Part shown: one piece after another, positions 21,327-24,644 of the stretch
Numbering within the stretch: the stretch's first letter is position 1
How the letters are laid out: the number at the start of each line of letters is the position of its first letter
Origin: a phage
Strand: one strand, 5' to 3'
Sequence record: PZ543597.1
DNA: 64,000 nt
Notes under the pieces: model-generated
Database searches by the model: none
What the model was told of the DNA's origin: nothing
What the model saw: only the letters and a program-made list of their open reading frames with translations
Program-made: the position numbers and the translations under genes

Positions 21327-21614
21327 ATGATTCTTTATGCGAAAGTATCATCCATTGAAAATGGATATAAATATGATCAAGACGCGGCTAAAGCTTTGAT
21401 TGATGATTATGGCATTTTAACATGTTTTGAAGTTGAAAAGGTTTACATTGACCGTTCATCTTCTCAAGTTAAATTAGTGAAGGAAGAACGTAAATTTAAT
21501 ACAGTAAATTTTGATTTCTTTATTGAAACAGAAAAAGGTCCTCTTGAATATGATATTTTCAAGAATCCTTTGGGTCTTGAATGCATCGTAAATATGTATT
21601 ATTATAAATGGTAA
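21327..21614 (+). CDS. hypothetical protein
   Basis: 95-aa ORF abutting the upstream gene. Confidence 0.5.
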   Translation: MILYAKVSSIENGYKYDQDAAKALIDDYGILTCFEVEKVYIDRSSSQVKLVKEERKFNTVNFDFFIETEKGPLEYDIFKNPLGLECIVNMYYYKW

Positions 21615-21711: not shown

Positions 21712-21784
21712 TGGGAATTAGCCAAGTTGGTAAGGCACTGGATTTTGATTCCAGGATGCAAAGGTTCGAGTCCTTTATTCCCAG
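21712..21784 (+). tRNA. tRNA-Gln: tRNA-Gln (anticodon UUG)
   Basis: Manual cloverleaf: acceptor tgggaat/attccca, anticodon loop ttTTGat, T-loop ttcgagt. Confidence 0.85.
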
Positions 21785-21785
21785 C

Positions 21786-21872
21786 GCGAGAATGGCCAAA
21801 TTGGTAAAGGCACAGCACTTAAAATGCTGCGGAATGATTTCCTTGTGGGTTCGAGTCCCACTTCTCGCACCA
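21786..21872 (+). tRNA. tRNA-Leu: tRNA-Leu (anticodon UAA), class II, CCA encoded
   Basis: Acceptor gcgagaa/ttctcgc, anticodon loop ctTAAaa, long variable arm, 3' CCA. Confidence 0.85.
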
Positions 21873-21877
21873 AATTT

Positions 21878-21951
<74 letters not shown>

Positions 21952-21961
21952 ATTTAATTTA

Positions 21962-22035
21962 CTCCGTGTAGCTCAGTTTGGTAGAGCGTCTGCTTTGGGA
22001 GCAGAATGTCGTAGGTTCAAATCCTGCCACGGAGA
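21962..22035 (+). tRNA. tRNA-Pro: tRNA-Pro (anticodon UGG)
   Basis: Acceptor ctccgtg/cacggag, anticodon stem tctgc/gcaga, loop ttTGGga. Confidence 0.85.
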
Positions 22036-22037
22036 CT

Positions 22038-22127
22038 GGAGGCGTGGCAGAGTGGTTTAATGCACCGGTCTTGAAAATCGGCAGTCGCTCCGGCGACTCA
22101 TAGGTTCAAATCCTATCGCCTCCGCCA
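22038..22127 (+). tRNA. tRNA-Ser: tRNA-Ser (anticodon UGA), class II
   Basis: Acceptor ggaggcg/cgcctcc, anticodon loop ctTGAaa, long variable arm, 3' CCA. Confidence 0.85.
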
Positions 22128-22132
22128 GTTTT

Positions 22133-22208
22133 GCTGATTTAGCTCAGTAGGTAGAGCAACTCACTTGTAATGAGAAGGTCGGCGGTTCGATTCCGTCAAT
22201 CAGCACCA
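22133..22208 (+). tRNA. tRNA-Thr: tRNA-Thr (anticodon UGU)
   Basis: Acceptor gctgatt/aatcagc, anticodon loop ctTGTaa, 3' CCA. Confidence 0.85.
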
Positions 22209-22209
22209 A

Positions 22210-22284
22210 GGCCCTGTAGCTGGAAGGTTCAAGCAAGCGACTCATAATCGCCAGATGGTGGTTCAATTCCACCCAGGGCCACCA
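22210..22284 (+). tRNA. tRNA-Ile: tRNA with anticodon CAU (Ile by analogy with T4, where the wobble C is modified; Met not excluded)
   Basis: Acceptor ggccctg/cagggcc, anticodon loop ctCATaa, 3' CCA. Confidence 0.75.
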
Positions 22285-22293
22285 AATTAATTT

Positions 22294-22380
22294 GGGGAGT
22301 TATCCCGTAGAGGTAGCGGTGTGGACTGTAAATCCATTGTCATTGCGACTCGGGTGGTTCGACTCCACCACTCCCCACCA
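22294..22380 (+). tRNA. tRNA-Tyr: tRNA-Tyr (anticodon GUA), class II; not among the eight T4 tRNAs
   Basis: Acceptor ggggagt/actcccc, anticodon stem gtgga/tccat with loop ctGTAaa, 15-nt variable arm, T-arm ggtgg-ttcgact-ccacc, 3' CCA. Confidence 0.7.
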
Positions 22381-22384
22381 ATTT

Positions 22385-22459
22385 GGATGTGTAGCTCAAT
22401 GGCAGAGCGATCGCCTGTTAAGCGATTGGTTATAGGTTCGAATCCTATCACGTCCGCCA
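22385..22459 (+). tRNA. tRNA-Asn: tRNA-Asn (anticodon GUU); not among the eight T4 tRNAs
   Basis: Acceptor ggatgtg/cacgtcc (one G-U), anticodon stem atcgc/gcgat with loop ctGTTaa, T-loop ttcgaat, 3' CCA. Confidence 0.7.
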
Positions 22460-22573
22460 AATTTGTGACAACTGTCACATTAATATCTACTTGACGCGAT
22501 TATAGGGGTTGAACTGATCACTCTTCTCTTAATTTCGTGTGAAGACATCTTGATTGTTGGAGTAGGTATTAAT

Positions 22574-22649
22574 GTGGCCGTAGTTCAGTTGGTAGAACTC
22601 GAGATTGTGATTCTCGTAGTCATGGGTTCGACTCCCATCGGTCACCCCA
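22574..22649 (+). tRNA. tRNA-His: tRNA-His (anticodon GUG); not among the eight T4 tRNAs
   Basis: Acceptor gtggccg/cggtcac, D-stem gttc/gaac, anticodon stem cgaga/tctcg with loop ttGTGat, T-loop ttcgact, 3' CCA. Confidence 0.7.
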
Positions 22650-22653
22650 ATTA

Positions 22654-22729
22654 CGGGGCATAGCTCAGAAGGAAGAGCAAGGACCTTCTAAGTCCTAGGT
22701 CGTAGGTTCGATCCCTACTGCCTCGACCA
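22654..22729 (+). tRNA. tRNA-Arg: tRNA-Arg (anticodon UCU)
   Basis: Acceptor cggggca/tgcctcg, anticodon stem aggac/gtcct with loop ctTCTaa, T-loop ttcgatc, 3' CCA. Confidence 0.85.
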
Positions 22730-22747: not shown

Positions 22748-23098
22748 ATGAAAGGTAATGTTTATTTAGTAGTTCATGATTTAACATTCTATTTTAATCA
22801 TAATGATACTGTTATTTCTGAACGTGTAATTAATTTGCTTTATCAGCATGCAGATTATGTTTATGTCGAAAACGAATATGGTCATTGGCAATTTCTCAAA
22901 AATCGTTCATTTGGTTTAGATGGTTACGAATATTTTGATCGTAAAGACCTTTTAGATACAATTCCGTTATCTACACAATATCAAAATCATAAGTCTTTAC
23001 ATAAATGCCGGCTAATTCGAAATGCTGAATCCGCGTATGAAGCAATTGATTTGTGGCGTAAACGCCGTGAATATATTGATTCTTTAAAAGAATATTAA
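22748..23098 (+). CDS. hypothetical protein
   Basis: 116-aa ORF with RBS gtgaggaaaat immediately after tRNA-Arg; AT-rich phage-like codon usage. Confidence 0.55.
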   Translation: MKGNVYLVVHDLTFYFNHNDTVISERVINLLYQHADYVYVENEYGHWQFLKNRSFGLDGYEYFDRKDLLDTIPLSTQYQNHKSLHKCRLIRNAESAYEAIDLWRKRREYIDSLKEY

Positions 23099-23099
23099 G

Positions 23100-23434
23100 A
23101 AACCGGGTCGCTACCGGTAAGTCGTCGGACTGATGTTCCCTGGAGTATAGTTTCCTCCCACAGTTTTACTGTGTTCTGGCTCTTTACTATCACAGCAGAA
23201 ACGGCGCACCGAATTATCGATTCGAGGAAATATCTTTGCCGTAAGCCGAGTAGCGTTTTTGACGGAACGTTCGGATATGGTCGAGATATGGCCTTTTAAA
23301 AATATTGAGTAGCGTCAACTACTTAATAACCGGGTTCGAATCCCGGCGTTTCGTACAAACACTTGCCTTAGCAGGTGGAACCCCGACAAGGTTGCCGCAA
23401 GGCTTAGCCCCGACCGAAAGGTTGGGGCTTTTTG
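23100..23434 (+). ncRNA. GC-rich structured non-coding segment, possible stable RNA (compare T4 rnaC/rnaD)
   Basis: About 330 nt with no ORF on either strand except a spurious N-terminal extension; GC content clearly above the local phage average; contains a tRNA-like T-arm ccggg-ttcgaat-cccgg and several hairpins; ends in an intrinsic terminator. Confidence 0.3.
23406..23434 (+). terminator. intrinsic terminator (copy 1 of a repeated hairpin)
   Basis: agccccgaccgaaaggttggggc followed by ttttt; identical to 23963-23990. Confidence 0.7.
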
Positions 23435-23435
23435 G

Positions 23436-23443
23436 TATAAATA
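23436..23443 (+). promoter_or_regulatory. T4-type late promoter (TATAAATA) for the downstream capsid-targeting-sequence gene
   Basis: Exact TATAAATA immediately 3' of the terminator hairpin, 39 nt upstream of the ATG at 23482. Confidence 0.55.
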
Positions 23444-23481
23444 TTAGTATATTAAATCTACAAATTAAAACAGGAAATAAG

Positions 23482-23955
23482 ATGAAATCATATACTCAAT
23501 TTTTAAATGAAGCGGTGTTAAATGAAGCATCTAGCACCGAAATTCAAGCTGTTGCAAAAGCTGCCATTGCCGCGGGTAAATATTCCTATAAAGATGCTTC
23601 TGATGAATCGCGATTCCAGTTTGCACGCGACATGAAAGCGGAAGGATTTACGGGAAATGCAGTTAGTATGGCCTGGAAAAGTTTAGTTGCTACTGGCGCT
23701 GCTTTTGCAAAGGCTTCGGGTAAACCTGCTCCTAAAGCAGATCCTAAAGCGGCACAAGAAAAAAATATCGTTAAAGGAATTATCGCTAAATATGAAGCTA
23801 TCCTTAAAGAGCTTTTAGTAATCAAAACCGAAGGCCAAAAGTTAGCCCGTGCTTATAGTTTCAAAGATAATCCACATGTTCACTCTCTTGAGTATGTTGA
23901 AGACATCCAAAAAATTATTAAAGACCGCATTTGGTCTGCTAAACAAATCAAATGA
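23482..23955 (+). CDS. internal-protein-like gene with capsid targeting sequence
   Basis: Starts MKSYTQFLNEA with RBS caggaaa; Ala/Lys-rich 157-aa product. The track ORF 23305-23955 extends upstream through a terminator hairpin and is rejected as the start. Confidence 0.6.
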   Translation: MKSYTQFLNEAVLNEASSTEIQAVAKAAIAAGKYSYKDASDESRFQFARDMKAEGFTGNAVSMAWKSLVATGAAFAKASGKPAPKADPKAAQEKNIVKGIIAKYEAILKELLVIKTEGQKLARAYSFKDNPHVHSLEYVEDIQKIIKDRIWSAKQIK

Positions 23956-23962
23956 CATTCTT

Positions 23963-23990
23963 AGCCCCGACCGAAAGGTTGGGGCTTTTT
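23963..23990 (+). terminator. intrinsic terminator (copy 2 of the repeated hairpin)
   Basis: Same agccccgaccgaaaggttggggc hairpin plus ttttt, directly after the stop at 23955. Confidence 0.7.
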
Positions 23991-24080: not shown

Positions 24081-24644
24081 ATGAAAACCTATGCCGAATT
24101 TTTAACCGAAGCAGCAAAATTACCATCTGAAGCAGATCTTACTAAAGTATTCTTCCAATTGGACCCAAAAGACCGCGGCGATTTTCTTAAGTGGAAAGCT
24201 AAAGCTATTGAAATGTACAACATCGATAATAGTTCTTTTACAATGAGTCAAGAAAATAAATTCAATAAAGCATTTTTCAAAATTTCTAAGAAATTGGCAT
24301 CTGGCGCTCAGGTTCCTAAATCTGTGTTAGCTACTCCTGAACGCGCACCTGTTAAAATTTCTAAGAATATGTTCGACACTAAAAAATACGTTAATGCTTT
24401 GAATAAAGCTCTTGATGCATTGGATGATGCAAAGAAGGCAGCCCGCGATCTTCAAGACGTGTACACCGATTTTGACCGCAAAACTAAAGGTTCTATTTCA
24501 AATAGCGAACGCAATAGTGTAAGTGTTTATTCTGATAGCCTTGATGTTCTTGGCGATGCGTATACTGAAATTAAAAATCGTATTAACACTGCATCTAAGC
24601 TAAAAGCTGCTGCAGAAGCTATAATAAGTAAACTAGGTAAATAA
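24081..24644 (+). CDS. internal-protein-like gene with capsid targeting sequence
   Basis: 187-aa ORF starting MKTYAEFLTEA with RBS aaggat; basic and Ala-rich, similar in size to T4 IpIII. Confidence 0.6.
   Translation: MKTYAEFLTEAAKLPSEADLTKVFFQLDPKDRGDFLKWKAKAIEMYNIDNSSFTMSQENKFNKAFFKISKKLASGAQVPKSVLATPERAPVKISKNMFDTKKYVNALNKALDALDDAKKAARDLQDVYTDFDRKTKGSISNSERNSVSVYSDSLDVLGDAYTEIKNRINTASKLKAAAEAIISKLGK

Follow-up and report, generated by a model that had tools for sequence, protein, structure and literature searches.

The segment at positions 23100-23434 of the phage sequence PZ543597.1 (64,000 nt, analysed here over its full length and referred to as the window) very probably is the distal end of a phage tRNA operon, comprising orthologues of the rnaD and rnaC genes, a 3′ trailer and an intrinsic terminator; to this identification we attach proposals on the biogenesis, structure and function of the two RNAs. 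Judging by the sequence, the segment is the copy, in a T2-like phage, of phage T4 rnaD (species 2 RNA) and rnaC (species 1 RNA), and the source phage is a T2-like Tequatrovirus. Both RNAs, as well as the segment itself, are already known from T4 and T2; what is added here are precise coordinates, a family-wide fold of rnaC that includes a kissing loop, a view of rnaD as the carrier of an exchangeable cassette, and a usable covariance model.

Identity and layout of the segment

The segment differs in composition from the rest of the window. Its G+C content of 0.49 compares with 0.35 on average for the window (sd 0.037 for windows of 335 nt); a value of 0.49 or more is reached by only 0.5% of such windows, and the flanking ORFs have G+C contents of 0.30 and 0.39. 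This agrees with the initial annotation, which described the segment as GC-rich and devoid of a credible ORF; indeed, the longest ORF inside 23100-23434 does not exceed 42 aa. A 216-aa "ORF" with a TTG start (23305-23955) was rejected as an upstream extension only, the real gene starting with ATG at 23482. Compared with dinucleotide shuffles, folding stability is high for the whole segment (z = -4.4), for its rnaC part (z = -4.05), and for the trailer (z = -3.8).

In blastn searches, 23080-23460 proved 100% identical to Escherichia phage YUEEL01, and 810 phage records match the segment, with the region carried by about 750-810 records. The annotated rnaD/rnaC span is 99% identical to that of T2L and 91% identical to that of T4. 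The curated record of the T2L tRNA cluster (AJ880101) labels the homologous bases "rnaD: species II RNA" and "rnaC: species I RNA", and the same two genes are annotated on homologous DNA in the T4 genome (AF158101); the T2L region has been described in a paper on the SegB homing endonuclease (PMC2330249).

The positions given here come from a three-way alignment and end mapping against T2L (AJ880101) and T4 (AF158101), so that the exact RNA ends are borrowed from two annotations that disagree by 1-2 nt. All features lie on the plus strand. The T2-type rnaD, about 116 nt long, occupies ~23095-23210, aligned with T2L rnaD 1690-1805 and T4 rnaD 1998-2116, its ends being uncertain by 1-3 nt. It is separated by an A/U-rich spacer, GAAUUA (23211-23216), a putative processing site, from the tRNA-like rnaC of about 140 nt (~23217-23357), which is delineated by the T4 and T2L annotations, the covariance model and covariation, and whose ends map to 23217-23355 by the T4 annotation and to 23218-23357 by that of T2L. 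Alignment and folding define the 3′ trailer of the operon transcript (23358-23405), and a stem-loop with a T run defines the predicted intrinsic terminator of the tRNA/rnaD/rnaC operon (23406-23434). The order of tRNAs, rnaD, 6-nt spacer, rnaC, trailer and terminator is the same as in T4 and T2L. Thus, the earlier suggestion of a stable small RNA possibly akin to the T4 species 1 and 2 RNAs is borne out by base-for-base alignment to T2L and T4 rnaD and rnaC. What had been taken for one structured segment is structured, but it comprises more than a single RNA, namely, two distinct RNA genes followed by the trailer and the terminator.

These identities bear on a competing reading, namely, that the segment is protein-coding, with one or more small products, which is how many GenBank records annotate it. 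The YUEEL01 record and many others among those listed either leave the region blank or label it "hypothetical protein", and ORFs of 32-42 aa are present. However, the substitutions compensate one another within helices, the centre of rnaD is swapped for unrelated cassettes of differing length, and RNAs are what the curated entries for T4 and T2L give at this position, so that a coding role appears exceedingly improbable.

An Rfam scan, which the initial annotation had proposed as a check, leaves the segment outside the annotated families but supplies no name: at gathering thresholds, only 11 tRNAs were found, with no family for rnaD or rnaC, and at E <= 10, the interval yielded only chance-level matches. 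Several candidates were tried and rejected. A canonical tRNA (RF00005) received no ARAGORN call and no RF00005 match in 23095-23434, the best match within the clan being to tRNA-Sec with 17 bits, where 47 would be required. The internal acceptor helix implied by the tRNA-Sec model, ACGGAACG paired with CGUUUCGU, lacks compensatory changes, and every one of 500 shuffles scores higher. For tmRNA, there was no ARAGORN call and no Rfam match in the interval.

Genomic context and the operon terminator

Directly upstream, 11 tRNA genes were identified by ARAGORN and Rfam at 21712-22729 on the plus strand. They are followed by a 116-aa ORF (22748-23098, plus strand) that belongs to phrog_3355 and matches the T2L trna.2 ORF at the same position; its stop codon (23096-23098) overlaps the 5′ end of rnaD. 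In T4, by contrast, rnaD directly follows tRNA-Arg, with segB upstream of the latter, whereas here the phrog_3355 ORF is located between tRNA-Arg and rnaD. Within the tRNA cluster, a 114-nt spacer without a called gene (22460-22573) separates tRNA-Asn from tRNA-His, and tRNA-Tyr (22294-22380) scores 30.3 bits against the Rfam tRNA threshold of 29, compared with 59-74 bits for its neighbours.

The trailer contains a hairpin, CACUUGC-CUUA-GCAGGUG (23360-23377), and is kept in Tequatrovirus, Mosigvirus, Dhakavirus and Gaprivervirus, also in phages that lack rnaC. As claimed in the initial annotation, the segment closes with an apparent intrinsic terminator: the predicted hairpin at 23406-23429 has a 10-bp stem with 7 G-C pairs and a GAAA loop and is followed by a T run, which together make up the G+C-rich hairpin and U run expected where a transcription unit ends.

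Beyond the segment, an exact 30-nt duplicate of the terminator is present, the two copies at 23404-23433 and 23961-23990 flanking a 157-aa ORF (23482-23955); this ORF and the one at 24081-24644 both belong to phrog_2280. The T4 and T2L sequences diverge from that of this phage after the first terminator, and in RB69, the terminator is joined directly to the sequence that here trails the second copy. The duplicated terminator and the ORF thus look like the insertion or duplication of a gene-plus-terminator cassette. A motif resembling T4 late promoters, TATAAATA, occurs at 23436-23443, right after the terminator, and at 21366-21373, about 340 nt before the first tRNA; none was found inside the interval, and the count of the motif across the window is at chance level.

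Fold of rnaC

RNAalifold applied to nine diverse rnaC copies gave a structure of 45 pairs, 18 of them with a compensatory change, and the resulting alignment was used to build covariance model R1, which assigns 163 bits to the rnaC analysed here. In the R1 alignment of 32 rnaC copies, 31 of them distinct and drawn from at least 10 genera, 93.4% of the cells in the distinct sequences are paired and 32 of 52 pairs show double changes. None of 500 shuffles reaches the observed covariation, and sliding the partner column by 1-3 positions lowers pairing to about 40%. What is shown by this covariation is a predicted four-way junction of tRNA-like topology, in which an oversized arm takes the position of the D-arm and a 10-bp arm that of the anticodon arm; across at least 10 genera, there is hardly any variation in the junction and loop sequences.

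The RNA's own ends form P1, an acceptor-like 7-bp helix of CGAUUCG (23218-23224) with CGUUUCG (23347-23353). Its two central U.U mismatches are found in 29 of the 31 sequences, G-C replaces an A-U pair in 13 of the 31, and the Tegunavirus version (CGGUCCG/CGGACUG) consists entirely of Watson-Crick and G-U pairs. Next to P1, P2 (AGG 23225-23227 with CCU 23292-23294) closes the long P3 arm (23230-23289, apical loop UUGACG at 23259-23264), in which double changes affect 19 of 21 pairs. In copies of the Gelderlandvirus, Moonvirus and Marfavirus types, the P3 sequence is almost wholly replaced and the hairpin is kept. An A-rich linker, listed between P3 and P4, leads to the P4 arm (23303-23328), with a 10-bp stem of which 8 pairs covary and the loop CGUCAA at 23313-23318.

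The T-arm, CCGGG-UUCGAAU-CCCGG, was correctly recognised in the initial annotation and misplaced there by a few bases: it lies at 23330-23346 and not at 23326-23344, and abuts the 3′ strand of P1 (23347-23353) as in tRNA. Two pairs of its stem covary, with G-C replaced by U-A in 15 sequences. The covariation analysis across relatives, another of the checks proposed at the outset, backs both the acceptor helix and the T-arm with compensatory changes. The T-loop consensus is absent from the Kanagawavirus and Winklervirus copies (UGCAUGC and UGCAUUC), which implies that a canonical tRNA elbow is not universally required. The tail (23354-23358 here) reads as a putative discriminator-like base followed by an NCA or CCA end: most lineages have U-ACA-A, against U-UCA-A in Tegunavirus and U-CCA-A in Marfavirus.

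A further set of pairs links the two large arms. The P3 loop, UUGACG (23259-23264), and the P4 loop, CGUCAA (23313-23318), are exact reverse complements of each other, allowing 6 bp, and all six are 100% paired in the 31 sequences. Both loops are invariant in this set except in two lineages, where they changed together, to UUGAUG/CAUCAA in Tegunavirus and to UUGGCG/CGCCAA in Marfavirus, that is, in two independent compensatory events. Given that the kissing pairs are outside the model used for alignment, they provide an independent test. The pairing may form within one rnaC molecule or between two, as the covariation fits either arrangement; the unequal lengths of the P3 and P4 arms would be compatible with more than one geometry of the kiss.

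These features also weigh on the possibility that rnaC is a working adaptor, i.e., an unusual tRNA or a tmRNA-like molecule that is aminoacylated and enters the ribosome. Such a role would fit the 7-bp acceptor helix abutting the T-arm and the discriminator-like U followed by an NCA tail, which in Marfavirus becomes U-CCA. Nevertheless, rnaC is unlikely to decode because the loop at the anticodon position, of 6 nt, is sequestered by pairing with the other loop, the acceptor helix carries tandem U.U mismatches in nearly all sequences, and the 3′ tail is mostly ACA, or UCA, across the lineages; moreover, ARAGORN finds neither a tmRNA nor a tag reading frame. We therefore regard a translating adaptor as highly improbable.

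Distribution of rnaC and its neighbourhood

The rnaC of this phage is 99.3% identical to that of T4 over 141 nt, and sequences at least 95% identical were found in 684 of 751 records, mostly from coliphages and their relatives, including Tequatrovirus and Mosigvirus such as RB69. Diverged copies occur in Kanagawavirus, Karamvirus, Winklervirus, Tegunavirus, Gelderlandvirus, Moonvirus, Marfavirus, and an unclassified Citrobacter phage. In the other genera, among copies with tRNAs annotated or detected nearby, rnaC lies within or beside the tRNA cluster; the gap to the adjacent tRNA, on one side or on both, is usually 3-9 nt. A location at the end of or inside a tRNA cluster, on the same strand, is shared by rnaC here and in 10 other genera.

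We scanned sequence collections with motifs of different stringency. A loose 15-base motif retrieved 120 stretches from IMG/VR, 80 of which were tested with the model, yielding 1 real rnaC, whereas a 22-base motif scan recovered 17 true rnaC loci. The first pattern applied to metagenomes found no rnaC, and the second produced 25 loci, about half of them real rnaC. Among bacteria and archaea, scanned with one genome per species, there were 17 chance matches, none of which fit the covariance model. At the sensitivity of these scans, the rnaC family looks restricted to phages.

In Dhakavirus IME08 (L009, about 1500-1650), rnaC is cleanly deleted and rnaD is joined to the trailer. In Gaprivervirus VR26 (L010, 1480-1565), only the last ~11 nt of rnaD persist, fused to the end of an ORF and followed by the trailer and terminator.

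Other structured RNAs may reside in the same neighbourhoods. Kosakonia phage Kc304 has an unannotated tRNA (L005, 1421-1492; 36 bits in Rfam) directly upstream of rnaC. In Enterobacter phage IME523, an unannotated stretch of ~360 nt downstream of rnaC (L003, 1643-2006) contains a T-arm-like GGTTCGA, and its first ~120 nt are near-identical in three further loci (L132, L141, L144), also downstream of rnaC. ARAGORN and Rfam call nothing in stretches of this type, which may represent another structured RNA.

The breadth of conservation is hard to reconcile with the view that the element is a decaying tRNA pseudogene or remnant devoid of selected structure, akin to the degenerate tRNA-like element that the initial annotation had offered as an alternative. 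The T-arm is perfect, there is a weak Rfam match to tRNA-Sec at 23262-23354 (17 bits, E = 3.5), and the element sits within a tRNA cluster, all of which speak in favour of this view. Against this, no tRNA or tmRNA is called in the interval by ARAGORN or Rfam, it is another fold that covaries strongly, and close identity extends through the great majority of the records. This pattern of conservation and covariation implies purifying selection rather than decay: rnaC is under strong structural constraint and is not a degenerating tRNA, so that the pseudogene explanation retains very little probability.

rnaD and its exchangeable centre

Located immediately 5′ of rnaC, rnaD is 99% identical to T2L rnaD and about 79% identical overall to T4 rnaD, the ends being identical to those of T4 and the centre different. 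The T2L annotation of this gene reads "putative; predicted by 5′- and 3′-end homology". In 17 distinct sequences, the 5′ ~47 nt and the 3′ ~25 nt are near-invariant. The 5′ part contains a hairpin (23102-23118, plus strand) with a 5-bp stem, ACCGG/CCGGU, and an invariant 7-nt loop, GUCGCUA, that appears in every single-sequence fold and in which an A-U pair changes to G-C or G-U across phages.

The centre, by contrast, exists in at least 4 unrelated versions of differing length among the relatives. Here, identity classes and folds delimit a variable cassette of the T2 type at about 23142-23193 on the plus strand, making up the distal part of a predicted rod. Every version of the centre folds as an extension of the rod, which is closed by GUCGUCG with CGGCG-CAC. 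We thus provisionally model rnaD as two elements, a hairpin at the 5′ end and a rod-shaped hairpin whose tip can be exchanged. The fold is provisional because covariation is thin (6 of 25 pairs) and stability is at the level of shuffles (z = -0.26 for rnaD alone, not exceptional). The gene is confined to the Tequatrovirus, Mosigvirus and Dhakavirus types. A search of the window for complements of the two invariant rnaD segments retrieved nothing beyond self matches and matches with 3 mismatches.

Expression, processing and possible functions

Knowledge of the species 1 and 2 RNAs dates back to the 1970s; in T4, they are made from a dimeric precursor that RNase P and RNase E cut. In T4, RNAC and RNAD have been detected by RNA-seq with validation by Northern blot and classed as late RNAs of unknown function (PMC9697503), and papers published between 2010 and 2025 call the function of the two RNAs unknown (PMC3014915; PMC12685909). 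The general processing of T4 tRNA precursors by RNase P has been reviewed (PMC11143913). Stable transcripts are known from T4 only, and the rnaC and rnaD described here from their sequence.

From the anatomy of the segment and the established biology of T4 tRNAs, we infer the following course of biogenesis. Transcribed together with the tRNAs, rnaD and rnaC would be part of a polycistronic RNA ending at 23406-23434. The 7-bp helix of rnaC adjoining the T-arm, together with a U or A at position -1, resembles the anatomy of an RNase P substrate, so RNase P would be expected to recognise the acceptor/T-arm stack and to cut 5′ of rnaC (-1 U or A across the family, U here; +1 C), and this cut would also free the 3′ end of rnaD. 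The A/U-rich spacers would be cut, or the ends trimmed back to the terminal helices of both RNAs, and these helices would render rnaD and rnaC stable. The T-arm of rnaC would likely be modified in the same way as that of tRNA.

The main rival to any specific role is that both RNAs are stable by-products of processing or operon punctuation that protects the 3′ ends of tRNAs and aids termination, with no function in trans. This explanation draws on the report that the tRNA region of T4 is dispensable for the development of the phage (PMC2330249), on the loss of rnaC in IME08 and of both RNAs in VR26 with retention of the trailer and terminator, and on the papers dealing with rnaC and rnaD, which name no target or partner (PMC9697503, PMC3014915, PMC12685909). 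Yet the junction and loops of rnaC hardly vary between genera while its helices covary, and rnaC is kept in clusters where tRNAs lie on both sides and an end cap is not needed. Furthermore, a single convergent SNP in rnaD raised virulence on host ECOR34 from 0.17 to 0.98 in a T4-like phage, and this SNP was selected three times independently on the semi-permissive host (PMC12685909). Weighing these points, we consider it rather unlikely that the two RNAs are mere by-products.

The convergent rnaD change hints at a host-dependent role, and, since a single SNP is tied to adaptation to a semi-permissive host, it strengthens the case for pursuing the question of function. Our best guess, which is speculation, is that rnaC acts as a tRNA mimic or decoy and rnaD has a host-dependent accessory role: rnaC would be a non-decoding mimic that occupies a tRNA-binding factor of the host or the phage, and rnaD a host-dependent accessory RNA. 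A more specific version holds that rnaC is a phage-restricted tRNA-like family, spread over at least 10 genera of T4-like phages and locked by the kissing pairs, that serves as a decoy or sponge and so engages a host factor that binds tRNAs, with the swappable tip of rnaD as a host-specific determinant, perhaps in counter-defence. Taken as a whole, this version is tentative and, in our estimate, improbable as yet; its structural half is well supported, and its functional half is conjecture.

Because the region is blank or mislabelled in many of the listed records and Rfam has no model for it, the ability to recognise rnaC and rnaD is of practical use. In addition, the rnaC fold and the covariance model provide handles, in the form of loop and acceptor mutants with compensatory partners, on an RNA that has been an orphan for 50 years.

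Comparison with known RNA systems

The tRNA-like domain of tmRNA (SsrA) resembles rnaC in that an acceptor helix is stacked on a T-arm, with neither a normal D-arm nor an anticodon arm, and in a 5′ end that is made by RNase P, as would be expected also for rnaC (for these tmRNA properties, see in part PMC3985003). Unlike tmRNA, rnaC has no tag reading frame and no pseudoknot ring, in most lineages its tail is NCA where tmRNA has CCA, and its body consists of two hairpins instead of a long closing helix.

Viral RNAs that copy the acceptor/T half of tRNA include the 3′ tRNA-like structures of plant viruses and the tRNA-like non-coding RNAs of gammaherpesviruses, which are handled by host tRNA enzymes without decoding. 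Such viral mimics are the subject of a review (PMC5723415). By contrast, rnaC is free-standing, phage-encoded and placed in a genuine tRNA operon, and has no sequence relationship to these mimics. Bacterial Y-RNA-like YrlA RNAs are small stable RNAs with a T-arm/acceptor-like module and are sometimes phage-borne; rnaC differs from them in giving no Rfam match at E <= 10 and in that its ends form an acceptor helix and not a Ro-binding stem.

For the loop-loop pairing, the TAR-TAR* complex offers a parallel, as it consists of kissing hairpins with two 6-nt loops of complete Watson-Crick complementarity. In rnaC, both loops are in one RNA, so that the predicted pairing could be either intramolecular or intermolecular. 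Finally, the rnaC and rnaD of T4 are orthologous to those of this phage and have the same lengths, whereas the centre of rnaD is here a cassette of the T2 type.
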